DNA of 64,000 nucleotides from Eledone cirrhosa (taxonomy: Eukaryota): contig OZ024740.1 of NCBI GenBank assembly GCA_964016885.1, forward strand, positions 325,934,001 to 325,998,000, written 5' to 3'. The translations under genes and the position numbers were made by a program. The notes beneath the pieces were generated by a model that searched no databases, was not told where the DNA came from, and saw only the letters and a program-made list of their open reading frames with translations. Positions within the stretch are counted from its first letter, which is position 1. Each line of letters opens with the position of its first letter. Shown piece after piece: positions 39-58,139 of the stretch.

Positions 39-81
<43 letters not shown>

Positions 82-4327: not shown

Positions 4328-4742
4328 ATAAAATATTAAACAAATAATGAACAAACAATTCCTTATATTAAACAAAAAAAGTTCACTATTTAACGATCGT
4401 TTCTAGGGCATATATGTGTTATAATTGGTATGCATATTTAACAGATCTATGTACAAAATTATACAAAATTATACAAATTATCAAGATTAAATATACATAC
4501 CTAACTCATATATACGCCGTCTTCAGAAATATTATTATTATTTCTGAAGACGGCGTATATATGAGTTAGGTATGTATATTTAATCTTGATAATTTGTATA
4601 ATTTTGTATAATTTTGTACATAGATCTGTTAAATATGCATACCAATTATAACACATATATGCCCTAGAAACGATCGTTAAATAGTGAACTTTTTTTGTTT
4701 AATATAAGGAATTGTTTGTTCATTATTTGTTTAATATTTTAT
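4328..4742. repeat. ~415-bp near-perfect palindrome containing a hammerhead on each strand
   Basis: Arms of ~200 bp, axis near 4535 (cttcagaaata ttattat tatttctgaag). Confidence 0.95.
4535..4687 (+). ncRNA. Minimal type I hammerhead ribozyme with ~116-nt stem II region
   Basis: Stem I ttattattt/aaatagtga, CTGAAGA 4544-4550, stem II ggcgtatatatg...catatatgcc, GAAA 4667-4670, C-GATC-G stem III, GUU triplet. Confidence 0.75.
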
Positions 4743-4759
4743 ATATATATATATATATA

Positions 4760-4954
4760 TAACGAAGGAAATGTGGTAAGGAACCAGGTGAACCATAACG
4801 TACCAAAGTACTCAATACTTAGGGTAGTAGAGTGGGTAATAGGAACAAGTAAGACCCCGGCGGCTGAGCTCAAGCCGTTTCGACGGCTAATTCTGTACTG
4901 AATTAGCCGTCGAAACGGCTTGAGCTCAGCTGTCGGGGTCTTACTTGTTCCTAT
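4760..4954. mobile_element. ~195-bp TA-inserted element ending in a 116-bp hairpin (copy 1; copy 2 at 42074-42270)
   Basis: aacgaaggaaatgtggtaaggaaccag... followed by palindrome 4839-4954. Contains GAAAC of a probable hammerhead 3' half. Confidence 0.8.
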
Positions 4955-4984
4955 ATATATATAGAAAAGGCTTCTACAGGACAA

Positions 4985-5970: not shown

Positions 5971-6175
5971 AGTGTGTGGAAAGAGATTTCCAAGGGTGTG
6001 TTGGGGAGTGGGGGAGCGACATTTAGAAAAAAGGGGGTGAGAGGAAACGGTACAAATGAAAATAAATATAAAAACATAATAAAAAAAAAAGCATGAAGAT
6101 AAACAAGTAGTTGAAGGGTGTGGGGCGTGTAGGGGTGGTGGCGGGTGGAGTGGGGAGAGGGAGGCGGGGTGTCCG

Positions 6176-6540
6176 AATGAAAATCCGAAGGCAAGGTAAA
6201 ATTCCAATCATTTAATCACGACACATGTTTCAATAAGAGATAGATCGATTGTGAAGCCATGATCGATTATCACTGATCTCATCAGGTGAAAATGAATTGT
6301 CTTCAAATTCTTGATATGAGGGAGAAAAATAACGATGTTCTCTCACAGAATCCATTCCCTCACAATTCTGTGAGAGAATATCGTTATTTTTCTCCCTCAT
6401 ATCAAGAATTTGAAGACAATTCATTTTCACCTGATGAGATCAGTGATAATCGATCATGGCTTCACAATCGATCTATCTCTTATTGAAACATGTGTCGTGA
6501 TTAAATGATTGGAATTTTACCTTGCCTTCGGATTTTCATT
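6176..6540. repeat. 365-bp inverted repeat (arms ~175 bp, 13-nt loop) with hammerheads on both strands
   Basis: The ORF track shows mirror ORFs 6230-6430(-) and 6286-6486(+) with near-identical peptides. Loop ccattccctcaca at ~6352-6364. Confidence 0.95.
6421..6508 (+). ncRNA. Minimal type I hammerhead ribozyme
   Basis: tcac-CTGATGA(6431-6437)...GAAA(6485-6488)-C-ATGT-GTC-gtga. Stem I tcac/gtga, GUC cleavage triplet. Confidence 0.75.
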
Positions 6541-6683
6541 TTGATACTTATACTCCGTTTTACATCATCTAGCTGTTTCCTTGAATGGAATTGGAGATAT
6601 ACAAAAGCGTGGAGAACTTAATATTGTTAACATAAATTTATTGGACCATTTTACACAACCAATATTGCACCTTACTATATAAC

Positions 6684-6867: not shown

Positions 6868-8490
<1,623 letters not shown>

Positions 8491-8599
8491 GTACGCAATA
8501 GAGCAATCGATACTAGATGAACATTTTAGAGGGGAAACTCCCACGTATGATTTAACATTAACATTGGAGAAATTGGGTGATGCACATGACTGACAGCTT

Positions 8600-11500
8600 G
8601 TATGTAGTATGTGTTGGTGTGTTGGGGAGTATCTGTAGTGTTGGTGTGTTGGGGAGTATCTGTAGTGTTGGTGTGTTGGGGAGTATCTGTAGTGTTGGTG
8701 TGTTGGGGAGTATCTGTAGTGTGTTGGTGTGTTGGGGAGTATCTGTAGTGTTGGTGTGTTGGGGAGTATCTGTAGTGTGTGTGTGTTGGGGAGTATCTGT
8801 AGTGTTGGTGTGTTGGGGAGTATCTGCAGTGTGTGTGTGTGTTGGGGAGTATCTGTAGTGTGTGTGTGTGTTGGGGAGTATCTGTAGTGTTGGTGTGTTG
8901 GGGAGTATCTGTAGTGTGTTGGTGTGTTGGGGAGTATCTGTAGTGTTGGTGTGTTGGGGAGTATCTGTAGTGTGTGTGTGTTGGGGAGTATCTGTAGTGT
9001 TGGTGTGTTGGGGAGTATCTGTAGTGTGTGTGTGTTGGGGAGTATCTGTAGTGTGTGTGTGTGTTGGGGAGTATCTGTAGTGTGTGTGTGTTGGGAGTAT
9101 CTGCAGTGTGTGTGTTGGGGAGTATCTGTACTGTGTGTTGGTGTGTTGGGGAGTATCTGTAGTGTTGGTGTGTTGGGGAGTATCTGTAGTGTGTGGGTGT
9201 GTTGGGGAGTATCTGTAGTATGTGTGTGTTGGGGAGTATCTGTAGTGTTGGTGTGTTGGGGAGTATCTGTAGTGTTGGTGTGTTGGGGAGTATCTGTAGT
9301 GTTGGTGTGTTGGGGAGTATCTGTAGTGTTGGTGTGTTGGGGAGTATCTGTAGTGTGTGTGTGTGTTGGGGAGTATCTGTAGTGTTGGTGTGTTGGGGAG
9401 TATCTGTAGTGTTGGTGTGTTGGGGAGTATCTGTAGTGTTGGTGTGTTGGGGAGTATCTGTAGTGTTGGTGTGTTGGGGAGTATCTGTAGTGTTGGTGTG
9501 TTGGGGAGTATCTGTAGTGTTTGTGTGTTGGGGAGTATCTGTAGTGTGTGTGTGTGTTGGGGAGTATCTGTAGTGTGTGTGTGTGTTGGGGAGTATCTGT
9601 AGTGTGTGTGTGTTGGGGAGTATCTGTAGTGTGTGTGTGTGTTGGGGAGTATCTGTAGTGTGTGTGTGTTGGGGAGTATCTGTAGTGTGTGTGTGTGTTG
9701 GGGAGTATCTGTAGTGTTGGTGTGTTGGGGAGTATCTGTAGTGTTGGTGTGTTGGGGAGTATCTGTAGTGTGTGTGTGTTGGGGAGTATCTGTAGTGTGT
9801 GTGTGTGTTGGGGAGTATCTGTAGTGTTGGTGTGTTGGGGAGTATCTGTAGTGTTGGTGTGTTGGGGAGTATCTGTAGTGTTGGTGTGTTGGGGAGTATC
9901 TGTAGTGTTGGTGTTTGGGGAGTATCTGTAGTGTGTGTGTGTGTTGGGGAGTATCTGTAGTGTGTGTGTGTTGGGGAGTATCTGTAGTGTGTGTGTGTTG
10001 GGGAGTATCTGTAGTGTTGGTGTGTTGGGGAGTATCTGTAGTGTTGGTGTGTTGGGGAGTATCTGTAGTGTTGGTGTGTTGGGGAGTATCTGTAGTGTGT
10101 GTGTGTGTTGGGGAGTATCTGTAGTGTAGTGTGTGTTGGGGAGTATCTGTAGTGTTGGTGTGTTGGGGAGTATCTGTAGTGTAGTGTGTGTTGGGGAGTA
10201 TCTGTAGTGTTGGTGTGTTGGGGAGTATCTGTAGTGTGTGTGTGTTGGGGAGTATCTGTAGTGTTGGTGTGTTGGGGAGTATCTGTAGTGTTGGTGTGTT
10301 GGGGAGTATCTGTAGTGTTGGTGTGTTGGGGAGTATCTGTAGTGTGGTGTGTGTTGGGGAGTATCTGTAGTGTGTTGGTGTGTTGGGGAGTATCTGTAGT
10401 GTTGGTGTGTTGGGGAGTATCTGTAGTATGTGTTGGTGTGTTGGGGAGTATCTGTAGTGTTGGTGTGTTGGGGAGTATCTGTAGTATGTGTTGGTGTGTT
10501 GGGGAGTATCTGTAGTGTTGGTGTGTTGGGGAGTATCTGTAGTGTGTGTGTGTTGGGGAGTATCTGTAGTGTGTGTGTGTTGGGGAGTATCTGTAGTGTT
10601 GGTGTGTTGGGGAGTATCTGTAGTGTTGGTGTGTTGGGGAGTATCTGTAGTGTGTTGGTGTGTTGGGGAGTATCTGTAGTGTGTTGGTGTGTTGGGGAGT
10701 ATCTGTAGTGTGTGTGTGTTGGGGAGTATCTGTAGTGTTGGTGTGTTGGGGAGTATCTGTAGTGTTGGTGTGTTGGGGAGTATCTGTAGTGTTGGTGTGT
10801 TGGGGAGTATCTGTAGTGTTGGTGTGTTGGGGAGTATCTGTAGTGTTGGTGTGTTGGGGAGTATCTGTAGTGTTGGTGTGTTGGGGAGTATCTGTAGTGT
10901 TGGTGTGTTGGGGAGTATCTGTAGTGTTGGTGTGTTGGGGAGTATCTGTAGTGTTTGTGTGTTGGGGAGTATCTGTAGTGTTGGTGTGTTGGGGAGTATC
11001 TGTAGTATGTGTTGGTGTGTTGGGGAGTATCTGTAGTGTTGGTGTGTTGGGGAGTATCTGTAGTGGTGGTGTGTTGGGGAGTATCTGTAGTATTGGTGTG
11101 TTGGGGAGTATCTGTAGTGTTGGTGTGTTGGGGAGTATCTGTAGTGTTGGTGTGTTGGGGAGTATCTGTAGTATGTGTTGGTGTGTTGGGGAGTATCTGT
11201 AGTGTTGGTGTGTTGGGGAGTATCTGTAGTATGTGTTGGTGTGTTGGGGAGTATCTGTAGTGTTGGTGTGTTGGGGAGTATCTGTAGTGTTGGTGTGTTG
11301 GGGAGTATCTGTAGTATGTGTTGGTGTGTTGGGGAGTATCTGTAGTGTTGGTGTGTTGGGGAGTATCTGTAGTGTGTGTGTGTTGGGGAGTATCTGTAGT
11401 GTTGGTGTGTTGGGGAGTATCTGTAGTGTTGGTGTGTTGGGGAGTATCTGTAGTATTGGTGTGTTGGGGAGTATCTGTAGTGTTGGTGTGTTGGGGAGTA

Positions 11501-13860
11501 TCTGTAGTGTTGGTGTGTTGGGGAGTATCTGTAGTGTTGGTGTGTTGGGGAGTATCTGTAGTGTTGGTGTGTTGGGGAGTATCTGTAGTGTTGGTGTGTT
11601 GGGGAGTATCTGTAGTGTTGGTGTGTTGGGGAGTATCTGTAGTGTTGGTGTGTTGGGGAGTATCTGTAGTGTTGGTGTGTTGGGGAGTATCTGTAGTGTT
11701 GGTGTGTTGGGGAGTATCTGAAGTGTTGGTGTGTTGGGGAGTATCTGTAGTGTTGGTGTGTTGGGGAGTATCTGTAGTGTTGGTGTGTTGGGAGTATCTG
11801 TAGTATGTGTTGGTGTGTTGGGGAGTATCTGTAGTGTGTGTGTGTTGGGGAGTATCTGTAGTGTTGGTGTGTTGGGGAGTATCTGTAGTGTTGGTGTGTT
11901 GGGGAGTATCTGTAGTGTTGGTGTGTTGGGGAGTATCTGTAGTGTGTGTGTGTTGGGGAGTATCTGTAGTGTGTGTGTGTTGGGGAGTATCTGTAGTGTT
12001 GGTGTGTTGGGGAGTATCTGTAGTGTTGGTGTGTTGGGAGTATCTGTAGTGTTGGTGTGTTGGGGAGTATCTGTAGAGTGTGTGTGTTGGGGAGTATCTG
12101 TAGTGTTGGTGTGTTGGGGGAGTATCTGTAGTGTTGGTGTGTTGGGGAGTATCTGTAGTGTGTGTCTGTTGGGGAGTATCTGTAGTGTGTGTGTGTTGGG
12201 GAGTATCTGTAGTGTTGGTGTGTTGGGGAGTATCTGTAGTGTTGGTGTGTTGGGGAGTATCTGTAGTGTTGGTGTGTTGGGGAGTATCTGTAGTGTTGGT
12301 GTGTTGGGGAGTATCTGTAGTGTGTGTGTGTTGGGGAGTATCTGTAGTGTGTGTGTGTTGGGGAGTATCTGTAGTGTTGGTGTGTTGGGGAGTATCTGTA
12401 GTGTTGGTGTGTTGGGGAGTATCTGTAGTATGTGTTGGTGTGTTGGGGAGTATCTGTAGTGTTGGTGTGTTGGGGAGTATCTGTAGTGTTGGTGTGTTGG
12501 GGAGTATCTGTAGTATGTGTTGGTGTGTTGGGGAGTATCTGTAGTGTTGGTGTGTTGGGGAGTATCTGTAGTATGTGTTGGTGTGTTGGGGAGTATCTGT
12601 AGTGTTGGTGTGTTGGGGAGTATCTGTAGTGTTGGTGTGTTGGGGAGTATCTGTAGTGTTGGTGTGTTGGGGAGTATCTGTAGTGTTGGTGTGTTGGGGA
12701 GTATCTGTAGTGTGTGTGTGTGTTGGGGAGTATCTGTAGTGTTGGTGTGTTGGGGAGTATCTGTAGTGTTGGTGTGTTGGGGAGTATCTGTAGTGTTGGT
12801 GTGTTGGGGAGTATCTGTAGTGTTGGTGTGTTGGGGAGTATCTGTAGTGTGTGGGTGTGTTGGGGAGTATCTGTAGTGTGTGTGTGTTGGGGAGTATCTG
12901 TAGTGTTGGTGTGTTGGGGAGTATCTGTAGTGTTGGTGTGTTGGGGAGTATCTGTAGTGTTGGTGTGTTGGGGAGTATCTGTAGTGTGTGTGTGTGTTGG
13001 GGAGTATCTGTAGTGTTGGTGTGTTGGGGAGTATCTGTAGTGTTGGTGTGTTGGGGAGTATCTGTAGTGTTGGTGTGTTGGGGAGTATCTGTAGTGTTGG
13101 TGTGTTGGGGAGTATCTGTAGTGTTGGTGTGTTGGGGAGTATCTGTAGTGTTGGTGTGTTGGGGAGTATCTGTAGTGTGTGTGTGTTGGGGAGTATCTGT
13201 AGTGTGTGTGTGTGTTGGGGAGTATCTGTAGTGTTGGTGTGTTGGGGAGTATCTGTAGTGTTGGTGTGTTGGGGAGTATCTGTAGTGTGTTGGTGTGTTG
13301 GGGAGTATCTGTAGTGTGTGTGTGTTGGGGAGTATCTGTAGTGTGTGTGTGTTGGGGAGTATCTGTAGTGTTGGTGTGTTGGGGAGTATCTGTAGTGTTG
13401 GTGTGTTGGGGAGTATCTGTAGTGTTGGTGTGTTGGGGAGTATCTGTAGTGTGTGTGTGTTGGGGAGTATCTGTAGTGTTGGTGTGTTGGGGAGTATCTG
13501 TAGTGTTGGTGTGTTGGGGAGTATCTGTAGTGTTGGTGTGTTGGGGAGTATGTGTAGTGTTGGTGTGTTGGGGAGTATCTGTAGTGTTGGTGTGTTGGGG
13601 AGTATCTGTAGTGTTGGTGTGTTGGGGAGTATCTGTAGTGTTGGTGTGTTGGGGAGTATCTGTAGTGTTGGTGTGTTGGGGAGTATCTGTAGTGTTGGTG
13701 TGTTGGGGAGTATCTGTAGTGTGTGTGTGTGTTGGGGAGTATCTGTAGTGTTGGTGTGTTGGGGAGTATCTGTAGTGTGTTGGTGTGTTGGGGAGTATTT
13801 GTAGTGTAGTGTGTGTGTGTGTTGGGAAGTATCTGTAGTGTGTGTGTGTGTGTGTGTGTA
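8600..13860. repeat. 27-bp minisatellite (gttggggagtatctgtagtgttggtgt)n, roughly 190 copies
   Basis: Near-invariant GGGGAGTATCTGTAG core with variable (GT)n linker; 27/29/31-bp unit variants. Confidence 0.98.
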
Positions 13861-14065
13861 CTGATGAGGAGTGCTGTGTGTTGGTGTACGTGTTCGTATG
13901 GATGTGTGTAGGGGGGGCGGTATGGGGGGTATGTGTGTTGGTGTACTGCAGTGTGCAGTGGTGTGGTGATGTGATGGTGGTGGTGTGTGTGTGTACTGAA
14001 CTGTGGAGTGAAGTGTATGTGCTGATGCATGTACATACTGGCATATATGTGTGTGTGTGTGTGTT

Positions 14066-14975
14066 GTGAAGGCGTGTAGTTTAGAGGGCAGGGGTCGGCG
14101 ACTCAAAATCTTATGGTTGTGTGTTCCATTTGGTGGCGTGTTATGTCCTTGTGCAAGTCCTTTTATTTCACGTTCTCATCTGTGACCATAATTGAAAAAG
14201 ACATCCTTGTCACACAGTGTCATAATGAATCACTCCGAGAACTACCTTAATGTTGCACGTGTCTGTGGAATGCTTAGCCACTTGCACTGATACAAAATGA
14301 ACTGTATATGTAATTCTAACGTTCAGCCTTGTCATACAGTGCCATGCTGAATCTCCCTGAGAATTATATTAAGGTACACTTGTCTGTAGAATGCTCAATC
14401 ACTTACATTATAACACAAGATAGACTGTACCTGTAATTGAATAGGTTAGCCTTGTCACTCACTGCGCCAAGCTGAATCTCCCTGAGAATTACATTAAAGG
14501 ACCACGTGACTGTGGAATGCTCAGCCACTTGCACTATGCTTCAAGATGAGATGTACTCGCAATTCAAAGAACCAGCCTTGTCACACAGTGCCATGCTGAA
14601 TCTCCCTGAGAATTTCGTTAAAGGAGCACGTGACTGTGGAATGCTCAGCCACTTGCACTAAGATACAAGATGAACTGTACTGCATTTCAAAGAGCCAACC
14701 ATGTCACACAGTGCCATGCTGAATCTCCCTGAGAATTATGTTAACAGAGCACGTGACTGTGGAATGCTCAGGAACTTGCACTAGGCTTCAAGATGAGCTT
14801 TATCTGCAGTTCAAAGAACCAGCCTTGTCACACAGTGTCAAGCTGAATCTCCCTGAGAATTACGTTAAGAGAGCACGTGTCTGTGCACGTTAGCTTCACG
14901 GGCAGGCTGTTCGGTTGTTCAAACAATTAGAATATACGCTTGTTAGGAAGCGACGGCGGTCCAACAACGTTTAGC
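14066..14975 (+). mobile_element. tRNA-derived CORE-type SINE with ~6-fold internal tandem amplification of a ~120-bp body unit
   Basis: Head gtgaaggcgtgtagtttagagg..., CORE-like ttatgtccttgtgcaagtcctttt, then repeated agccttgtcacacagtgccatgctgaatctccctgagaatta...tgtggaatgctcagccacttgcac. A monomeric copy is at 49710-49990. Confidence 0.75.
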
Positions 14976-15399
14976 TTTATTTAGCTGTCTGCCGTAATGG
15001 AGGACTGTGTAATGGTGATGCTTGACACCCACGTATTTCTGTTGTTACGACGGCGACAGCGGCAGTAGTGGGGGTGGGAGTGGGGGGTGAAGAGATGGTC
15101 ATACAGGTGGTGGTGGTGGTGGTGGTGATGGTGGTGGTGGTGGTGGTGGTGGTGGTGGTGTGCGTGTGTGGAGAGAGGCTCATGAAGGTGGTGGTGGTGT
15201 GTGTGTGGAGAGAGATGATCATGAAGGTGGTGGTGGTGATGTGTGTGTGTGGAGAGAGGCTCATGAAGGTGGTGGTGGTGGTTTTGTGTGTGTGTGTGTG
15301 GAGAGATGATCATGAAGGTGGTGGTGGTAGTGGTGTGGTGTGTGGAGGGATGATCATGAAGGTGGTGGTGGTGGTGATGGTGGTTGGTGCGGTTATAGT

Positions 15400-18300
15400 G
15401 TGTGGGAGTGGTGTAGATGGTGGTGATGGTAATGGTTGTGGTGGTGGTGGTGTTGATGATGGTGGTGATGGTGATGGTTGTGGTGGTGGTGGTGTTGATG
15501 ATGGTGGTGCTGGTGATGGTTGTGGTGGTGGTCGTTATAATGGTGGTTTGTAGTGATGATTGTGGTGGTTGCGGTAATTGTGGTGTTGGTGCTGGTGCTG
15601 GTGCTGGTTGTGGTGGTGGTAGTAGTGGTCTTCATGGTTGTAGTAGTGCTGTTATTAGTGATGGTGGTTGTAGTAGTTGTGGTTATAGTGATGGTGGTGA
15701 TGGTGGTAGTGGTGGTTGTGATTATAGTGATGGTGGTAGTGGTGGTTGTGGTGGTTGTGATTATAGTGATGGTGGTAGTGGTGGTTGTGGTGTTTGTGAT
15801 TATAGTGATGGTGGTAGTGGTGGTTGTGGTGGTTGTGGTTATAGTGATGGTGGTAGTGGTGGTTGTGGTGGTTGTGATTATAGTGATGGTGGTAGTGGTG
15901 GTTGTGGTGGTTGTGATTATAGTGATGGTGGTAGTGGTGGTTGTGGTGGTTGTGGTTATAGTGATGGTGGTAGTGGTGGTTGTGGTGGTTGTGGTTATAG
16001 TGATTGTGGTGATGGTGGTAGTGGTGGTTGTGGTTATAGTTATTGTGGTGATGGTGGTAGTGGTGGTTGTGGTTATAGTGGTGGTGGTGATGGTGGTAGT
16101 GGTGGTAGTGGTTATAGTGATGGTGGTGATGGCGGTAGTGGTGGTTGTGGTTATAGTGGTGGTGGTAGTGGTGATTGTGGTTATAGTGATGGTGGTGATG
16201 GTGGTAGTGGTGGTTGTGGTTATAGTGGTGGTGGTAGTGGTGGTTGTGGTTATAGTGAAGGTGGTGATGGTGGTAGTGGTGGTTGTGGTTATAGTGGTGG
16301 TGGTGATGGTGGTAGTGGTGGTTGTGGTTATAGTGATTGTGGTGATGGTGGTAGTGGTGGTTGTGGTTATAGTGATGGTGGTGATGGTGGTAGTGGTGGT
16401 TGTGGTTATAGTGGTGGTGGTAGTGGTGGTTGTGGTTATAGTGATGGTTGTAGTGGTGTTAGTGGTGGTTGTGGTTATAGTGGTGGTGGTAGTGGTGGTT
16501 GTGGTTATAGTGGTGGTGGTAGTGGTGGTAGTGGTGGTTGTGGTTATAGTGATGGTGGTGATGGCGGTAGTGGTGGTTGTGGTTATAGTGATGGTTGTAG
16601 TGGTGTTAGTGGTGGTTGTGGTTATAGTGGTGGTGGTAGTGGTGGTTGTGGTTATAGTGATGGTTGTAGTGGTGTTAGTAGTGGTTGTGGTTATAGTGGT
16701 GGTGGTAGTGGTGGTAGTGGTGGTTGTGGTTATAGTGGTGGTGGTAGTGGTGGTAGTGGTGGTTGTGGTTATAGTGTTGGTGGTGATGGCGGTAGTGGTG
16801 GTTGTGGTTATAGTGATTTTGGTAGTGGTGTTAGTGGTGGTGGTAGTGGTGGTAGTGGTGGTTGTGGTTATAGTGGTGGTGGTAGTGGTGGTAGTGGTGG
16901 TTGTGGTTATAGTGATGGTGGTGATGGTTGTAGTGGTGGTTGTGGTTATAGTGATGGTGGTGATGGTGGTAGTGGAGGTTGTGGTTATAGTGATGGTGGT
17001 AGTGCTGGTTGTGGTTATAGTGGTGGTGGTAGTGGTGGTTGTGGTTATAGTGATGGTTGTAGTGGTGTTAGTGGTGGTTGTGGTTATAGTGGTGGTGGTA
17101 GTGGTGGTTGTGGTTATAGTGATGGTGGTGATGGCGGTAGTGGTGGTTGTGGTTATAGTGATGGTTGTAGTGGTGTTAGTGGTGGTTGTGGTTATAGTGG
17201 TGGTGGTAGTGGTGGTAGTAGTGGTTGTGGTTATAGTGATGGTAGTGATGGCGGTAGTGGTGGTTGTGTTTATAGTGATGGTTGTAGTGGTGTTAGTGGT
17301 GGTTGTGGTTATAGTGGTGGTGGTAGTGGTGGTTGTGGTTATAGTGATGGTTGTAGTGGTGTTAGTGGTGGTTGTGGTTATAGTGGTGGTGGTAGTGGTG
17401 GTAGTGGTGGTTGTGGTTATAGTGGTGGTAGTGGTGGTTGTGGTTATAGTGATGGTGGTGATGGCGGTAGTGGTGGTTGTGGTTATAGTGATTTTGGTAG
17501 TGGTGTTAGTGGTGGCTGTGGTTATAGTGGTGGTGGTAGTGGTGGTAGTGGTGGTTGTGGTTATAGTGGTGGTGGTAGTGGTGGTAGTGGTGGTTGTGGT
17601 TATAGTGATGGTGGTGATGGTTGTAGTGGTGGTTGTGGTTATAGTGATGGTGGTGATGGTGGTAGTGGTGGTTGTGGTTATAGTGATGGTGGTAGTGGTG
17701 GTTGTGGTTATAGTGATGGTTGTAGTGGTGTTAGTGGTGGTTGTGGTTATAGTGGTGGTGGTAGTGGTGGTTGTGGTTATAGTGATGGTGGTGATGGCGG
17801 TAGTGGTGGTTGTGGTTATAGTGATGGTTGTAGTGGTGTTAGTGGTGGTTGTGGTTATAGTGGTGGTGGTAGTGGTGGTACAGGTGGTTGTGGTTATAGT
17901 GATGGTTGTAGTGGTGTTAGTGGTGGTTGTGGTTATAGTGGTGGTGGTAGTGGTGGTAGTGGTGGTTGTGGTTATAGTGGTGGTGGTAGTGGTGGTAGTG
18001 GTGGTTGTGGTTATAGTGATGGTGGTGATGGCGGTAGTGGTGGTTGTGGTTATAGTGATGGTGGTAGTGGTGTTAGTGGTGGTTGTGGTTATAGTGGTGG
18101 TGGTAGTGGTGGTAGTGGTGGTTGAGGTTATAGTGGTGGTGGTAGTGTTGGTAGTGGTGGTTGTGGTTATAGTGATGGTGGTGATGGTTGTAGTGGTGGT
18201 TGTGGTTATAGTGATGGTGGTAGTGGTGGTAGTGGTGGTTGTGGTTATAGTGATGGTGGTAGTGGTGGTTGTGGTTATAGTGATGGTGGTAGTGGTGGTT

Positions 18301-19945
18301 GTGGTTGTGGTTATAGTGATGGTGGTAGTGGTGGTAGTGGTGGTTGTGGTTATAGTGATGGTGGTGATGGTGGTAGTGGTGGTTGTGGTTATAGTGATGG
18401 TGGTGATAGTAGTAGTGGTGGTTGTGGTTATAGTGATGGTGGTAGTGGTGGTAGTGGTGGGTGTGGTTATAGTGATGGTGGTAGTGGTGGTTGTGGTTAT
18501 AGTGATGGTGGTAGTGGTAGTTGTGGTTATAGTGATGGTGGTGATAGTAGTAGTGGTGGTTGTGGTTATAGTGATTGTGGTGATGGTGGTAGTGGTGGTT
18601 GTGGTTATAGTGATGGTGGTGATGGTGGTAGTGGTGGTTGAGGTTATAGTGATGGTGGTGATGGTGCTAGTGGTGGTTGTGGTTATAGTGATGGTGGTAG
18701 TGGTTGTAGTGGTGGTTGTGGTTATAGTGGTGGTTGTGGTTATAGTGATGGTGGTAGTGGTAGTTGTGGTTATAGTGATGGTGGTAGTGGTGGTTGTGGT
18801 TATAGTGATGGTGGTAGTGGTGGTTGTGGTTATAGTGATGGTGGTAGTGGTGGTTGTGGTTATAGTGATGGTGGTAGTGGTGGTTGTGGTTATAGTGATG
18901 GTGGTGATAGTAGTAGTGGTGGTTGTGGTTATAGTGATGGTGGTAGTGGTGGTTGTGGTTATAGTGATGGTGGTAGTGGTGGTTGTGGTTGTGGTTATAG
19001 TGATGGTGGTAGTGGTGGTAGTGGTGGTTGTGGTTATAGTGATGGTGGTGATGGTGGTAGTGGTGGTTGTGGTTATAGTGATGGTGGTGATAGTAGTAGT
19101 GGTGGTTGTGGTTATAGTGATGGTGGTAGTGGTGGTAGTGGTGGGTGTGGTTATAGTGATGGTGGTAGTGGTGGTTGTGTTTATAGTGATGGTGGTAGTG
19201 GTGGTTGTGGTTATAGTGGTGGTTGTGGTTATAGTGATGGTGGTAGTGGTGGTTGTGGTTATAGTGATGGTGGTAGTGGTGGTTGTGGTTATAGTGATGG
19301 TGGTAGTGGTGGTTGTGGTTATAGTGATTGTGGTGAAGGTGGTAGTGGTGGTTGTGGTTATAGTGATGGTGGTAGTGATGGTTGTGGTTATAGTGATGGT
19401 GGTGATAGTAGTAGTGGTGGTTGTGGTTATAGTGTTGGTGGTAGTGGTGGTTGTGGTTATAGTGATGGTGGTAGTGGTGGTTGTGGTTATAGTGATGGTG
19501 GTAGTGGTGGTTGTGGTTATAGTGATGGTGGTAGTGGTGGTTGTGGTTATAGTGATGGTGGTGATAGTAGTAGTGGTGGTTGTGGTTATAGTGATGGTGG
19601 TAGTGGTGGTTGTGGTTATAGTGATGGTGGTAGTGGTGGTTGTGGTTATAGTGATGGTGGTAGTGGTGGTTGTGGTTATAGTGATGGTGGTGATAGTAGT
19701 AGTGGTGGTTGTGGTTATAGTGATGGTGGTGATGGTGGTAGTGGTAGTTGTGGTTATAGTGATTGTGGTGATAGTGGTGATGGTCGTGGTGGTAGTGGTG
19801 GTTGTGGTTATAGTGATTGTGGTGATAGTATTGATGATGGTGGTGGTTGTGTTGGTTGTGATTATAGTGATTGTGGTGATAGTGGTGGTGGTGGTCGTCG
19901 TCGTGGTAGTGACGGTGGTGGTTGTCGTTGTCGTGGTGACAATAG
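15400..19945. repeat. Triplet-based compound minisatellite (ggt ggt agt ggt ggt tgt ggt tat agt gat)
   Basis: Nearly all triplets are NNT. One frame reads GGSGGCGYSD, another poly-Val. Confidence 0.95.
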
Positions 19946-21585: not shown

Positions 21586-21749
21586 ATATTGTTATACTTT
21601 GGGAGGGTCATGTTGCCAATAAGAAACACATGCACCAGTTACTTTCACTTCAATTTATTATAATAAATTTATAAATTTATTATAATAAATTGAAGTGAAA
21701 GCAACTGGTGCGTGTGTTTCTTATTGGCAACATGACCCTCCCAAAGTAT

Positions 21750-21756
<7 letters not shown>
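21586..21756. repeat. 170-bp palindrome made of two head-to-head PLE terminal sequences
   Basis: attgttatactttgggagggtcatgttgccaataagaaacac... and its reverse complement, axis near 21671. Confidence 0.9.
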
Positions 21757-21833
<77 letters not shown>

Positions 21834-23407: not shown

Positions 23408-23627
23408 CTTTATAACCTATGCTCTGGTTTCTATTTGGTCCATGGAGCGCTTGCCAGCATTACTCGGATATTGCGTTTCGCTTTGTTTTCGACCATAGCC
23501 GAATTACGAATTTCGCTGAAATTATATTTGTATGTGTGTATATATATAGTTTTCTGGAGTACCCTTGAAATATATATAATAGAATAAATATGGTTTTATA
23601 AATATAGTTTCCATTTATTAATATCAT

Positions 23628-23686
<59 letters not shown>

Positions 23687-23788
23687 TTGGTGGTCTGAAT
23701 ATATATATATATATGTGTGTGTGAATGAAGTAATTCCGTCGGAAAGGTCCAGGAAAAAAGAGTGCTCTATGTAGGTTACAGAGCTTAT

Positions 23789-23962
23789 TAGTTATGTAAT
23801 AAACAACATAAGATAATTATTTCATTTACCAGTGGTTTCTTGAAAGCAAACAAAATTTGCTTTCAGTCATCAGAATTCTGATGACTGAAAGCAAATTTTG
23901 TTTGCTTTCAAGAAACCACTGGTAAATGAAATAATTATCTTATGTTGTTTATTACATAACTA
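23789..23962. repeat. Perfect 174-bp palindrome with no loop, centred on GAATTC; each arm is a hammerhead core
   Basis: Axis 23875/23876. CTGATGA 23878-23884, 10-bp stem II tgaaagcaaa/tttgctttca, GAAA 23912-23915, cc-act-gg, GUA. Confidence 0.92.
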
Positions 23963-23981
23963 TATACATATATATATATAA

Positions 23982-24096
23982 AAAATTGAAAAAGTGGAGA
24001 ATAACATGGTCAACAGTACAAAAAAGGAGATTTATTTACAGTCTAAATTAGACTAAATAAATCTCCTTTTTTGTTATTCTCCACTTTTTCAATTTT
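23982..24096. repeat. Imperfect palindrome (with indels) at a TA-adjacent element end
   Basis: aaaattgaaaaagtggagaataaca...agtctaa a ttagact...tgttattctccactttttcaatttt. Confidence 0.85.
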
Positions 24097-24251
24097 ATTA
24101 CTCCAGGTTAAACTTACATAGGAATACAAGTGAAATCATAAACTCGTCATCCACGTTAACCTCTTGTTCAGTCATACAACGCCGTACGCTAAAACTATCC
24201 ATGAGGTATTCACAACCTCTAATCGGATTACCTATAACGATATCTTGTTAT

Positions 24252-32129: not shown

Positions 32130-32542
<413 letters not shown>

Positions 32543-33026
32543 ATTAAATAAATGGAAAACTATATTTATAAAACCATATTTATTTCATTATATATATTTC
32601 GGGGATATCATATTAACAATATGCTATGCCTTCATCAGACAAAATACAATATAAACAGTTTTATAGATAAATATATTCGACATACCGTAATAAACATCAA
32701 CTTCATTTGAAGAGGTTCACTCTAGCAGTGAAAATACAGAGAGAAAGAAAGAGAGAGAGAAAAGAGGGAAATAAGAAAGAAAGAAAGACGAAACGAAGAA
32801 AAGGAAGAAAAAGAAGAAAAAGAAGAAATGCATGGGACAAAATAGAGAGATGGAAAAATAGATAAAGCGAAGAGCTTCATGTAAAGAGACCGAAAGAGAT
32901 ATATATATATATATAGAGAGAGGAAATAGAGATAGATACATATATAAATATAGATATAGTAAATAAGGCACTAAATTACGCATTCAAACATAAATAGAGA
33001 TAGATACATATATAAATATAGATATA

Positions 33027-34430
33027 GTAAATAAGGCACTAAATTACGCATTCAAACATACGGACCTAACTAGCAAAGAAATGCATATTATATTATCGGC
33101 TAGGAAAACTTTGATAGAATTTGATGACAAATTATGGACCAGAGCAGATAGAGATAGCAATTTTGACATAACTATGGGATCTTCCGACTCAGCTCAAGTA
33201 ACTGACCTTGTGGGCTTATTTTTAATCAATTCGCTACATAGGAAAATACCTGGTACTACCGGAGGTTTATATAGGGATGACATGCTTTTACTCATTAATA
33301 ATAATAACCCTGAACTAAATAGAAAATGTAAACAAATTACAAAATTTTTTAATTACTTTAACCTTAAAATAGAAATTGAGAACAACCATAGAATAGTCAA
33401 TTTCCTAGATATAACATTAAATCTCAACACATGTCTCCACTATCCTTTTCACAAGTTGAATGAAAACTTAAACTATGTCAACTTTAACTCTAACCACCCC
33501 AGATCTGTCAAAAACACTATAGTAAACTCAGTCCAAAAGCGTATCTCTAGGATCTCGTCGAATAGAAAGATTTTTGACGAAAAGGCCCAATACTATAATG
33601 ATGCACTAGCTAGGGCAGGGTATGCTGATAAGATTGTGTACATAGATAATGATAAACAAACTAAACAAAGTAACAACTTTTTTAATTATGGCAACAACAT
33701 TAACAACTATAATAGAAAGCATTACAATAATTCCAAAGGACAAAAAAGAAATAGAACTAGGAACATAATTTGGTTTGCCCCCCCTTTCTCACTAAACATT
33801 AAAACCCACATCGCTAAATTATTTTTCAAAGCTCTTGATAATCGCTTCCCTAGAACACATAGGTACCACTCAATCTTCAATAGGCATACAATTAAATTAA
33901 CCTATTCATCCACCAAAAATTTAGCACAAAATATTAATAGAATAAATAATAGGAACTTAAAAACTACTGATAATAGCATAAATAATATACAAGTTAACAA
34001 ATGCAACTGTAGAGATAGATCTAAATGTCCGTTAAATAACAACTGCTTAGTTAAAAATATAGTATACAATTGTAATGTTAATACTGACTCTAATTCTTTT
34101 AACTACGTCGGTTCCACATCGACGGAATTTAAACTTCGCTATAATAACCACAAGAATTCTTTCACAGATCCAAATAAAAAATCTTCAACGGCACTATCAG
34201 GTGTACTCTGGCAACTTAAGCTAGATAACGTTAGATATTCGACGGCTTGGAATATAGTCTCAAGAGGGATTCCTTTTAATTCATCCTCTGAGACATGTGA
34301 CCTCTGCGCAGAGGAGATATTCTTTATACTAAAATCTAAAAATTCCCTTAACCTACGGACAAATTTATTCAGTTGTTGCAAACATAGATTAAACTCAACG
34401 TTTAAATATAAATTTAAATTTAAAATGTAG
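33027..34430 (+). CDS. PLE reverse transcriptase (C-terminal part) + Cys linker + GIY-YIG endonuclease, N-terminally truncated but uninterrupted
   Basis: FDITMGSSDSAQVTDLVG, GLYRDD, VNFLDITLNL, SNHP, IIWFAPPFS, CNCRDRSKCPLNNNC, NIVY...YVGST...FKLRYNNH, CDLCAEE...LNLR...CCKH. The frame extends upstream of the annotated ATG (VNKALNYAFKHT...). Confidence 0.9.
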   Translation, partial: VNKALNYAFKHTDLTSKEMHIILSARKTLIEFDDKLWTRADRDSNFDITMGSSDSAQVTDLVGLFLINSLHRKIPGTTGGLYRDDMLLLINNNNPELNRKCKQITKFFNYFNLKIEIENNHRIVNFLDITLNLNTCLHYPFHKLNENLNYVNFNSNHPRSVKNTIVNSVQKRISRISSNRKIFDEKAQYYNDALARAGYADKIVYIDNDKQTKQSNNFFNYGNNINNYNRKHYNNSKGQKRNRTRNIIWFAPPFSLNIKTHIAKLFFKALDNRFPRTHRYHSIFNRHTIKLTYSSTKNLAQNINRINNRNLKTTDNSINNIQVNKCNCRDRSKCPLNNNCLVKNIVYNCNVNTDSNSFNYVGSTSTEFKLRYNNHKNSFTDPNKKSSTALSGVLWQLKLDNVRYSTAWNIVSRGIPFNSSSETCDLCAEEIFFILKSKNSLNLRTNLFSCCKHRLNSTFKYKFKFKM

Positions 34431-35520
34431 TATATTTAGTTTGATTTATATTTATATGAGAACTAGCCGATAAATCTTTTGATTCCTAAATCTTTGATTC
34501 CCTCTTTTTACTGTTTATTTTATTGTATTTATTTTTATTTTTATTTTTTATTTTTATTTTTATCTAAACATTCCTCATGAAAAATTAAGCTACCCTAAAA
34601 GCCGATGCTCCAAATTTTATGAATTAACCTTACACTTGATAAACTTATATATTAAATATAGGAACATATGTAGACATTATTGGACATCATAACCTTTTTT
34701 TTTTTGCGATATTCCTTGCTAGATGTGATTTGATAGATAATTTTTGGCTTTGTCTTGTAGTGAACTTGGCAATATATTGTCAATTAACCTTGAAGGGTTG
34801 TTCTTTGTGGTTTATTTTTTATTTTTATTTTTATTTTTATTTTTATTTTTATTTTTATTTTTATTCTTTTAGTATTGTAGTATTCTATAATATTTTTATA
34901 TTTTTATTTTTTATTTTTTATTTTATTTTATTTTTATTTTTAATATTTTTATATGTAAAGTTTTAATACGTAATAATTTTAAAACATAGTATTTTTAATA
35001 TGCAATATTTTTATTATGTAATATTCTTTCGTAATATTCTTTTTTAGTTTTCTATTCTATATTTTTATATTTTTATATATTTTTACTTATTATCATTATT
35101 ATTGTTATCTCTGCTTATAATATAATATATATTTTCGATTAGTATATTGAAATCTGCTCTCTATTTCTGCTTGATAGATAATCTTGTAGAGTAATCGCAA
35201 GAATAATAATACGCTCAAATGTTTATACCACATTGAGAATGTTTTCCGGTAACTTTGAATTTGCGGAGTGAATCAGTTGGATTCACATAGACATATGAAT
35301 TTTTTAAAAAACTAAACATAAGATAATGAATTTTCACGCATTGTGAATACTTGTTTCATTCAGGAATACTGATATTTACAATATAGTGTAAGTTTTATAA
35401 ATACTAATACATTAAAACATAGGGTTTTCTACGCCTCGAATATGTCTGGCTATTTTTAAATTTTTCTCTCTCTATATCTCTCTATATCTCTCTATATCTC
35501 CCTTACATTAATACTTGAGC

Positions 35521-35555
<35 letters not shown>

Positions 35556-35918
35556 ATGCATCATTGATACACTTACTCAAAATGACCTCCCACTACCTAA
35601 TTTTTCTATATCTATATTTATATATGTATCTATCTCTATTTCCTCTCTCTATATATATATATATATCTCTTTCGGTCTCTTTACATGAAGCTCTTCGCTT
35701 TATCTATTTTTCCATCTCTCTATTTTGTCCCATGCATTTCTTCTTTTTCTTCTTTTTCTTCCTTTTCTTCGTTTCGTCTTTCTTTCTTTCTTATTTCCCT
35801 CTTTTCTCTCTCTCTTTCTTTCTCTCTGTATTTTCACTGCTAGAGTGAACCTCTTCAAATGAAGTTGATGTTTATTACGGTATGTCGAATATATTTATCT
35901 ATAAAACTGTTTATATTG

Positions 35919-35984
35919 TATTTTGTCTGATGAAGGCATAGCATATTGTTAATATGATATCCCCGAAATATATATAATGAAATA
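35919..35984 (+). ncRNA. Hammerhead ribozyme of the PLE pLTR (mirror copy on the minus strand at ~32580-32645)
   Basis: tattttgt-CTGATGA(35927-35933)...GAAA(35965-35968)-tatata-TA-atgaaata; palindromic stem III. Confidence 0.75.
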
Positions 35985-36115
35985 AATATGGTTTTATAAA
36001 TATAGTTTTCCATTTATTTAATATTGTAAATATACTCCAAGTATTTGTCGAGTGCTTTTATATCAGTTATAAATATTTACTAGTTGTAACCCAACAATTT
36101 TAAATATAACTTTAC

Positions 36116-41231: not shown

Positions 41232-41758
41232 TATGAGAGACGTAAAATAAGAAAATTATAAAATTAACTTACTTACTAAAAAATCACTTCCAACTAATTA
41301 GTTTCTGGAATGGAGTAAATATATTTTCCGAAGAAACATATAGAAAATCATTCCGTCATCAGGAAAGTCTTTTTCATTTGTCGAGCAATATTTGGCCATG
41401 ACTGCTACTATGGTAGTAGGCTGGCCGCTGTCTTATTAACCACTCGCTTTCCACTGATTGACCTCGATGTCACGTGATTGATTCTTTTTGAATTTGCCAC
41501 AGACGTAGAGGCAGTGATTTTCTCAATGGCTAGGAATCCAGTCCACGCTTCGCTATTTCCTTTCCACTGAATTATTTTTTTAATAAGTTTCCAGAGTCCT
41601 CGCTATGCCTGGAGACTTACACGGAAAAAGACTTTCCTGATGACGGAATGATTTTCTATATGTTTCTTCGGAAAATATATTTACTCCATTCCAGAAACTA
41701 ATTAGTTGGAAGTGATTTTTTAGTAAGTAAGTTAATTTTATAATTTTCTTATTTTACG

Positions 41759-41767
<9 letters not shown>
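41232..41767. mobile_element. TA-inserted PLE end with ~140-bp inverted arms and a ~250-bp spacer; hammerhead in each arm
   Basis: Arms 41232-41372 and 41625-41767. actttc-CTGATGA(41637)-c-ggaatg...cattcc-a-GAAA(41694)-ctaattag-TT-ggaagt. Confidence 0.88.
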
Positions 41768-42073: not shown

Positions 42074-42270
42074 TAACGAAGGAAATGTGGTAAGGAACCA
42101 GATGGATCATAACGCACCAAAGTACTCAATACTTAGGGTAATAGAGTGGGTAATAGGAACAAGTAGGACCCCGACAGCTGAGCTCAAGCCGTTTCGACGG
42201 CTAATTCTGGACTCAGAATTAGCAGTCGAAACGGCTTGAGCTCAGCCGTCGGGGTCCTACTTGTTCCTAT
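42074..42270. mobile_element. Copy 2 of the hairpin-terminated TA-inserted element (see 4760-4954)
   Basis: Same ends and same hairpin axis (gacggctaattctg gact cagaattagcagtc). Confidence 0.8.
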
Positions 42271-42939
42271 ATATATATATATACCCCATTATTCTTGTTC
42301 TTGTGTGTTGGCATGTAAACAGAACTGCATGTGTATATGTATGTTATATAAAATGTATATGTATATATGTATATAGAGAGAGGGGGAGAGAGATAACAGT
42401 CATACATGGTATATTATCATATAACAGACTAAAATGAAAGAACTAGAAATTAAGGTCAGTATGCTCTCTTCAAAATCACAAGGCCTCCTGCCAAACGCCC
42501 TACTTACTCCCATCCTGCCCTCAACCCCACCTCAAGTGTGGTCTGTCCTGTTTCAACTACGATATTTGATTTACCTGGAATCACCAGATTGTTGCAGGTG
42601 TTACATCCTCGTTAATATTGTTGTTGTTGTTGTTGTTGTTTTGTTGTTGTTGTTTTGTTGTTGTTACTGTTTTTATTATTGTCGTAATTGTTGTTAGTGG
42701 TGTGGGAGCTAATGTTATCGTTGTTGTTGTTACTTTTGTTGTTTTTGATGTCATTGGTGTTGATGTCATTGTTGTTGTTGTTGTTGTTGTTACTTTTGTT
42801 GTTTTATATGTCATTGTTGTTGTTGATTAGCCTTGATTGAGTGTTTCCAGCTGTGACCAGACCACGTTTACCATCCACCAGATGCTAGCAAACTCTTGAT
42901 CAACGGAACAGCCTGCTCTTGAAATTAACGTGTAAGTGG

Positions 42940-51792: not shown

Positions 51793-52136
51793 CGACAGAG
51801 TAACAAAGCAGGCATTTATTTTAAAGTGTTGCTGTTGTTATTGCTTTAATTCTCATCGGTTGACCAGAAAACGTACGTCTAGTTACTTTGCACTAAATAC
51901 ATTTATATATAAAAAGTATATATTCTATATATTTTCCTCGCATATTTTCTCCAAACGAAGCCTCATAAACATATATACACTTATGTATATATATAGTTAT
52001 TAATATATATTATATATTTTCCTCGCATTTATCTGAACAAAACATTTAGAAGTATAAACACATAAGTCTATATTTATATATATAATATATTTATTAATAT
52101 TATTATTTTGGTAAACTCTTGGAACTATCATTAACA

Positions 52137-52189
52137 ATGCCAGGGGATTCTTCTGATGAAACCACCACCTCTGCTCCGAGCAAAGAAGC
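52137..52189 (+). CDS. Candidate first coding exon MPGDSSDETTTSAPSKEA..., cut by an assembly gap; product unknown
   Basis: ACAATG context and an abrupt shift from AT-rich leader to ~50% GC open frame up to the N run. Confidence 0.4.
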
Positions 52190-52389
52190 NNNNNNNNNNN
52201 NNNNNNNNNNNNNNNNNNNNNNNNNNNNNNNNNNNNNNNNNNNNNNNNNNNNNNNNNNNNNNNNNNNNNNNNNNNNNNNNNNNNNNNNNNNNNNNNNNNN
52301 NNNNNNNNNNNNNNNNNNNNNNNNNNNNNNNNNNNNNNNNNNNNNNNNNNNNNNNNNNNNNNNNNNNNNNNNNNNNNNNNNNNNNNNNN
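52190..52389. other. Assembly gap (200 N)
   Basis: N run. Confidence 1.
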
Positions 52390-57370
<4,981 letters not shown>

Positions 57371-57387
57371 TATTTATATCATATTCG

Positions 57388-57575
57388 GACGGTGGATTGG
57401 CAGTATCGGTAGAGGGTCGGACGCCATGCTTTCCAGCATAGTTACGTCCCTTTATGATCTGAGTTCAAATCCCGTCGAGGTTGACTTTGATTTTCATCCT
57501 TACGGCCTCGATAAAATAAAGTACCAGTAATGCACTGGATAATTGCTGGCCTTGTGCCTAAAGTAGAAACAATTA
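57388..57575 (+). mobile_element. tRNA-derived SINE family A
   Basis: Same consensus as 26150-26340. Confidence 0.85.
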
Positions 57576-57579
57576 TTTA

Positions 57580-57797
57580 TATCATATTCATCATCATCAG
57601 TTACGTCTGCTTTTCCCTGCTTGCAAGGGTGGGACGGGTCTTATTCAGCACAGCATCTCTCCACTCGTCATTGTCCCTCGTCATCTCCACCGTGAGCTTC
57701 AATGATCTGAGGTCTGTTCTCACCACCTTCGCCCATGTTTTTCGTGGTCTACCTCTACCACGTCTTCCTTCAACTGGCATTTCCTGGCACTTCTTCA
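57580..57797 (-). mobile_element. RTE LINE extreme 3' end with (TGA)n tail
   Basis: CQEMPVEGRRGRGRPRKTWAKVVRTDL....MTRDNDEWR is the typical RTE C-terminus. Confidence 0.85.
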
Positions 57798-58139
57798 TAT
57801 ATATATTATATATATATATTATTTATATTATATTATATATATTATATATTATATGTATATTATTTATATTATATTATATATATATTATATATTATATTTA
57901 TATATATTTATATATTATATTTATATATATTTATATATTATATTTATATATATATATTATATTTATATATATATATATATTATATTATATTGCCTGAATA
58001 AAAAAGAAAACTATTGGGAGGCGGTAGTCCGTGTGTGTGTGTGTGTGTGTCTGTGTGTGAAAGGTAAACTGAAATAACACAATCGGTACAGTATATGGAA
58101 GGTATATATTAGGTTAACATTTCATATAGCAGGAAGAGG

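Follow-up and report, generated by a model that had tools for sequence, protein, structure and literature searches.

Introduction

Head-to-head pairs of terminal repeats (pLTRs) with a palindrome at the junction and a tail on one side only are known from Penelope-like retroelements (PLEs), where they have been read as products of self-priming on an antisense transcript (PMC3846280), and the formation of such repeats is stated as an open question in the consulted parts of two papers (PMC3846280, PMC8557442). Work in vitro on the Poseidon element PAc describes two internal reverse transcription start sites that bound the tail, with extension of both target strands, and an enzyme that cuts both target strands, is predicted to form a dimer and does not need hammerhead cleavage (excerpts of PMC11167929). 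In L1 twin priming, a second cDNA is primed internally from the other target end, leaving microhomology at the inversion junction, and full-length 5′ junctions carry an extra G that stems from the mRNA cap (excerpts of PMC11702581).

The locus described here lies in a window of 64,000 nt of the Eledone cirrhosa assembly GCA_964016885.1 (contig OZ024740.1, positions 325,934,001–325,998,000), the whole stretch of DNA that was analysed and to which window coordinates refer. It is an ordinary, young Penelope-like insertion. As in the Penelope head-to-head pLTRs (described in parts of PMC3846280, PMC8557442 and PMC2377424), a 5′-truncated inverted copy abuts a direct copy, with a junction palindrome and a tail at one end, but neither arm here reaches the length of one pLTR, and copies are abundant enough for breakpoint mapping. 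The family shares with PAc the two starts bounding the tail downstream of the hammerhead and an AT-rich target, although PAc was studied in vitro and belongs to a different clade, and the sites are 65 nt apart here (PMC11167929). Junction microhomology and an extra G at full-length 5′ ends are held in common with L1 twin priming, whereas both starts are fixed internal sites here, as opposed to poly(A) and a random site in L1, and the arms, unlike those of L1, often overlap and so form palindromes (PMC11702581).

Structure of the palindrome

The preliminary description of this DNA reported a loopless 174-bp palindrome whose arms are exact reverse complements meeting at GAATTC, with CTGATGA beginning at the last C of this site on each strand. 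Both statements were borne out: the palindrome (window 23789–23962, 174 nt) consists of two 87-nt arms that are 100% complementary with 0 nt between them, and CTGATGA starts at 23878 (+) and 23873 (−), placing the axis 2 nt before the core on each strand. That first reading missed the asymmetry of the element, the left arm of which runs 65 nt further, to 23724, while the right arm has no tail (Table 1). Element positions are counted from the first T of TTCTGATGA (position 1, window 23876), so that the hammerhead core occupies positions 3–9. The tail at 23724–23788 agrees in sequence comparison with the ORF-bearing copy L170 up to position 152. Folded as RNA, the 174 nt form one hairpin of −133 kcal/mol (z −31 vs 200 shuffles), and the palindrome is therefore not a product of chance. 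The overlap at the junction of this copy (locus L252) allows alternative splits of 0, 1 and 2, and the exact 32-nt window junction occurs a single time in the genome. On a check for target-site duplication, both flanks were found to be microsatellite.

Table 1 Features of the palindromic insertion (window coordinates)
Feature	Position	Strand	Remarks
Left flank, (TA)7(TG)5	23700..23723	+	Target microsatellite and strand-biased (TG)n run typical for tail-side junctions
65-nt PLE tail, element positions 88–152	23724..23788	−	Prolongs left arm; terminates at family site 2
Left palindrome arm	23789..23875	−	pLTR positions 1–87; identical to many genomic copies
Mirror truncated hammerhead	23820..23873	−	Exact reverse complement of the + strand hammerhead
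Junction, 2-nt AT microhomology	23875..23876	.	Suppliable by either arm; within GAATTC 23873–23878; compared with parent copies
Right palindrome arm	23876..23962	+	pLTR positions 1–87; terminates at family site 1
Truncated type I hammerhead	23878..23931	+	Core CUGAUGA 23878–84, stem II 23886–23910, GAAA 23912–15; quasi-palindromic stem III; predicted cleavage between 23924 and 23925; 3′ strand of stem I present
Right flank, short (TA)n target	23963..23980	+	From sequence

Other inverted structures are present in the window. Directly right of the palindrome, 23982–24096 holds a short imperfect inverted repeat with arms ~75% alike with indels. Six further head-to-head palindromes or inverted pairs belong to other repeat families (4380–4700, 4820–4970, 6150–6560, 21586–21757, 41250–41760 and 42130–42290); several of these have CTGANGA motifs, with axes at differing distances from the motif, and the one at 21586–21757 is loopless too, with 86-nt arms at 98%. 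The other PLE-like palindromes of the window have axes ~9, 73 or more nt before a CTGANGA motif. A long inverted pair of another TA-flanked family spans 32480–36050, with motifs at 32638 (−) and 35927 (+) and related pieces at 2737 and ~23540–23630. The rest of the window includes a long G/T-rich tandem array with 9- and 12-nt spacing, an N gap of ~200 and several kb of near-pure A/T repeat (~8000–19900, 52190–52390 and 52000–58000, respectively).

Parent element

The palindrome arm is the pLTR of a high-copy Penelope-like retroelement with Hydra-clade motifs. It is a high-copy repeat in the 3.0-Gb genome (1135 candidates, of which 40 were scored, most matches being 100% identical), with 1218 exact genomic matches of a 33-nt pattern for site 1 (position 87, followed by TATA or (TA)n) and 829 exact matches for site 2 (~position 152, after the 65-nt extension). 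The parental order is seen in L162, in which a pLTR with tail is followed by an ORF with reverse transcriptase (RT) and GIY-YIG domains and then by a pLTR ending at site 1; L163 is similar with a deletion in the endonuclease. In both, an ATG lies ~120 nt beyond the extension, followed by a degraded ORF (N-terminal, RT and GIY-YIG parts), a long repeat-rich 3′ region and the second pLTR.

Several Hydra-clade characters were recovered, with RT and GIY-YIG domain calls made from motifs read by eye; Pfam and PDB searches with the ORF pieces returned no match. A single ORF with RT and C-terminal GIY-YIG endonuclease is linked to the pLTR in L162 and L163, degraded in each. The RWK motif and the change of DKG to DKT appear as RMRWKAM and LSDKTKN in the L023 piece, which is 75–94% identical to the ORF start of L162 and L163. 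The CxCx5C linker is found as CSCRKPDEC, preceding VVY...YVG with no cysteine between, and CCHH is absent, while CxxC and CxH near conserved E and N are present in other frames of the frameshifted L162. Insertion is into (TA)n: all 18 tail-less ends among 30 loci enter (TA)n, and repeats of (TA)/(CA) begin within a few nt of the tail end in nearly all of the 100 listed of 829 matches. Motifs and domain order would thus place the element in the Hydra clade; membership of Naiad, Neptune or Poseidon was considered and rejected, as both fit Hydra instead. Against the Hydra-clade PLEs described in the consulted parts of PMC8557442, the L162 unit is long (~4.6 kb, with microsatellite-rich and nested 3′ DNA, vs <3 kb), as is the tail (65 nt vs the usual 30–40 nt). 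The 65-nt extension is the known PLE tail, both ends of which were demonstrated to act as RT start sites in work on another clade (excerpts of PMC11167929).

A second Hydra-like family is represented by L175 (G000:C2:109002000-109011900, − strand), which has an uninterrupted 831-codon stop-to-stop frame with RWR, DKT, CxCx5C and CxxC/CxH motifs; the DNA upstream of this frame matches an arm of the window palindrome at 4380–4700.

Hammerhead ribozyme

The hammerhead is real in the parent element. Parent copies have the CUGANGA and GAAA cores, an NUH site and stems I–III, with the 5′ strand of stem I preceding the core, and the minimum-energy fold of a parent-type copy is the three-stem type I shape. 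Across 17 related aligned sequences, including this copy, 94% of cells are paired and 19 cells show two-sided changes (0 of 500 shuffles as high), a result inflated by the kinship of the sequences; within stem II, two-sided changes occur at 4 of 10 pairs. Rfam at gathering score gave no match in the window. Under the conventional hammerhead position numbering, the G10.1–C11.1 closing pair of stem II is absent, the core-proximal positions being C/A/U opposite A, followed by U–A. This pair is typical of PLE hammerheads (excerpts of PMC4209133).

In the present copy the axis falls inside stem I, the 5′ strand of which is reduced to 3 nt and otherwise replaced by the opposite arm, leaving a stem I of 3 bp, and the minimum-energy fold of the copy loses this stem. 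Both cores are predicted to be inactive, because stem I is cut to 3 bp and the long hairpin forms in any transcript that crosses the axis; the 174-nt hairpin would sequester both cores. The proposal of a ribozyme core on both strands is accordingly right as to the cores themselves, but they are not expected to be working ribozymes, since the hairpin is predicted to outcompete the ribozyme fold.

Distribution of inversion junctions

The preliminary description went on to propose that breakpoints are positioned at the ribozyme, and that axes mapped against hammerhead coordinates should cluster there. Breakpoints were taken from the first 100 listed of the 829 tail-end matches, in contig order rather than as random draws, with the anchor far from the ribozyme; automatic calls over-extended into microsatellites and were curated by eye. 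This sample comprised 40 head-to-head copies within 520 nt, 37 long copies and 23 single short arms. Exclusion of L201 (long partner) and L237 (both arms tailed) left 38 pairs with 76 breakpoints, 72 of which lie between −60 and 87. Another 100 copies, anchored at site 1, were left out of the statistics as mixed subfamilies lacking upstream references.

No clustering at the core was found among the 38 pairs. The core window (−2 to +3) holds 3 of the 72 breakpoints against 2.9 expected, and two of these three belong to the present copy; the cleavage window (48–53) gives the same 3 against 2.9, while the window −42 to −37, picked after seeing the data, holds 12 against 2.9 (P 3e-5). Axes of head-to-head pairs span −61 to +66, and junctions occupy a range of ~130 nt in which −42 is the one hotspot. 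Among 100 listed of 564 core-bearing arms, one breaks between −5 and +2, the search pattern having barred C as first letter and excluded the arms of this copy. Genome-wide counts of symmetric junctions (a motif, 0–6 nt and the mirrored motif) are highest at −40/−42, with 55, against 8 each for the core, the cleavage site and the control at −19 and 0 for the control at 64; these counts are only roughly comparable, as the five junction patterns cover different subfamilies and contain either 24 or 28 fixed letters. The eight core junctions include this copy and L278, likewise with GAATTC, and each of the eight is joined through an AAT, ATT or AATT overlap, indicating microhomology and a small local preference. 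The ribozyme core is at background as a junction site and the axis rule is not supported; what stands of the original claim is a PLE inversion that includes the hammerhead core, without a breakpoint placed by the ribozyme. The hammerhead cleavage site was also rejected as a hotspot, its 8 loci genome-wide and 3 of 72 breakpoints being background; both arms end at 48–53 in a few copies (L038, L095, L123 and L254).

Position −42 is a G after a T run. By eye, this G is preceded by another on at least one arm in 34 of the 50 listed of the 55 junctions at −42, two neighbouring junctions on C7 being possibly one event; among the other 16, 7 continue the template T, 7 end at a single G and 2 are ambiguous. 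Of 77 copies that read through the site, 3 show the same GG by eye. Among 100 listed arms of more diverged subfamilies, the hotspot is the end point of 9, and GG is present in 4 of these 9 and in none of the other 91. Since GG is found on either arm and across several subfamilies, the −42 GG junctions are independent events; GG is also present in non-inverted copies. One amplified master palindrome was rejected as their origin, because the junction letters, the subfamily and the GG-bearing arm vary, and a splice acceptor at −42 was rejected because no AG precedes it and the letters 5′ of GG vary. In most −42 junctions just one of the two arms carries GG, a pattern not expected from simple blunt joining of two capped ends, and T/A runs around −40 may make joining easier.

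Judged from DNA alone, −42 is likely to be the capped transcription start of the copied RNA. The pLTR of D. virilis Penelope contains a transcription start 46 nt ahead of an intron (excerpts of PMC2377424), and that intron has its end at hammerhead helix I (excerpts of PMC4209133); here −42 lies ~37 nt before helix I. A search of literature largely outside subscription journals returned no −42-type extra-G boundary, cap-like extra G or twin priming for PLEs, and no paper combining Penelope, hammerhead, inversion and pLTR.

Fusions of pLTR ends to internal ORF pieces in the same orientation were observed at L002, L086, L148 and L272–L274, suggesting template jumps; that of L148 is at −42 with an extra G, and L272–L274 are a triplication with a 28-kb period.

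Origin of the head-to-head arms

The two arms of a pair end in a regular manner. Opposite the tailed arm, the second arm terminates at site 1, or a few bases from it, in 37 of the 40 head-to-head copies and there meets an A/T run or (TA)n; the other three gave no clear partner end, one of them being tailed on both arms. Exceptions to the pairing of site 1 with site 2 are L237 and L287, both arms of which are tailed, and L278, with neither. The tailed arm stops at or before site 1 in several pairs (L178, L203, L206, L214 and L218), and 9 of 38 pairs (e.g. L203 and L218) have a tail-less arm whose 5′ reach exceeds that of the tailed arm by >10 nt, so that neither arm can have been copied from the other by fold-back. 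Arm ends are correlated, lying within 10 nt of each other in 19 of 33 overlapping pairs (permutation mean 5.4; Spearman 0.68), and arm divergence is 2.7% within a locus and 6.8% between loci (33 loci). The arms of one locus share the same source; the correlation of arm ends is equally explained by later symmetric trimming.

The signature of twin priming, two opposite RNA-templated cDNAs from one source with a microhomology joint, is found at family level, with the AT overlap in this copy. We think it probable that the copy is a short head-to-head pLTR insertion made by twin priming, with its axis given by AT microhomology and the ribozyme uninvolved. Two cDNAs would be primed from opposite strands of a cut (TA)n target, at the two fixed internal sites (1 and 2) of a capped sense RNA, and both would run towards the RNA 5′ end, after which their far ends would be end-joined into head-to-head arms. 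An RNA starting at −42 would yield only 130- and 195-nt cDNAs, which would explain the mass of short palindromes. In the present copy, both arms would have stopped, or been trimmed, ~42 nt short of the RNA end (near 0) and been joined via the 2-nt AT beside the core, and the position of the axis was likely not influenced by the ribozyme. Correlated ends and the extra G suggest that both cDNAs may have been made on one capped RNA molecule. Extended to the whole class, the chances seem evenly balanced that head-to-head PLE palindromes result from programmed twin priming, in which a capped sense RNA is copied from both start sites of the tail jointly, each serving a different target strand, with a sharp start boundary marked by a cap-derived G and a tail-side start often placed after reiterated (TG)n.

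Tail-side junctions (loci L178–L277) often have (CA)n that is absent from the parent, with at least 3 CA units starting ≤7 nt from the end in 35 of 100, and (TG)n at the same place in 0 of 100. On the cDNA strand, (CA)n corresponds to (TG)n before the element, and would reflect either reiterative, telomerase-like addition or priming from TG-ended targets. In L237, one arm passes the tail to just beyond the ATG and then enters (TA)n, which suggests a rare third start site.

A longer twin-primed palindrome (e.g. with −42 on both arms) might instead have lost its centre later, through cruciform or hairpin processing at the AT microhomology. Perfect palindromes are unstable, few arms of short pairs pass −47, and the strong correlation of arm ends is also in keeping with such a loss. 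However, palindrome processing usually leaves asymmetric centres, intact −42 palindromes persist, and the arms of this copy are 100% identical to each other and to many copies, marking it as young, so that we regard later loss of the centre as unlikely. For rotifer Penelope palindromes, which have the same architecture, the published reading is self-priming on an antisense transcript (excerpts of PMC3846280), and this accounts for symmetric junctions; it appears distinctly unlikely here, since the sharp extra-G boundary at the sense-strand 5′ end and the two fixed sense-RNA end sites fit sense templates, and non-overlapping pairs such as L203 and L218 have no self-complementary junction.

Two further readings take the symmetry of this one copy at face value. 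The mechanism offered in the preliminary description, in which reverse transcription stops at the hammerhead and folds back with axes fixed at the core, is compatible with the geometry of this single copy, its axis being 2 nt from the core, and can draw on the eight core-junction loci, one of which (L278) has the same GAATTC. Fold-back is nevertheless not supported at family level, where the tail is in one arm only and the 9 of 38 pairs with a tail-less arm further 5′ cannot be fold-backs; the core is not enriched over controls, a separate reason would be needed for the stop at position 87, and the probability of this mechanism is very low. A sequencing or assembly chimera, from a fold-back read or from ligation at an EcoRI-like site, would give the perfect symmetry, the axis in GAATTC and the single-copy junction, for which no read support was obtained: comparison of 23722–24235 with contig sets (X1, X2 and X4) and raw RAD reads (X21) returned thousands of records, from other copies, and among the listed read and contig pieces over this interval none crosses the axis, with 16 'goes back 2' reads having unknown letters between. 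A fold-back read would mirror the tail, though, whereas the outer ends are asymmetric in the manner of the family (tail on one side, site 1 and (TA)n on the other), the flanks differ and the junctions of seven other loci fall no more than 1 nt from this one, and we give a chimera the slightest of probabilities.

Implications

Copies of this family provide a direct readout from the genome, in which two end sites are fixed, junctions are correlated and a boundary is marked by an extra G. Taken together, these features make a model of twin priming on sense RNA testable, and the family data suggest that PLE transcription starts can be read from genomic sequence by itself. This family-level cap and twin-priming signal bears on the open question of how PLE head-to-head repeats form. 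If true, programmed twin priming would replace the hypothesis of antisense self-priming and would explain the abundance of short palindromic pLTR pairs.
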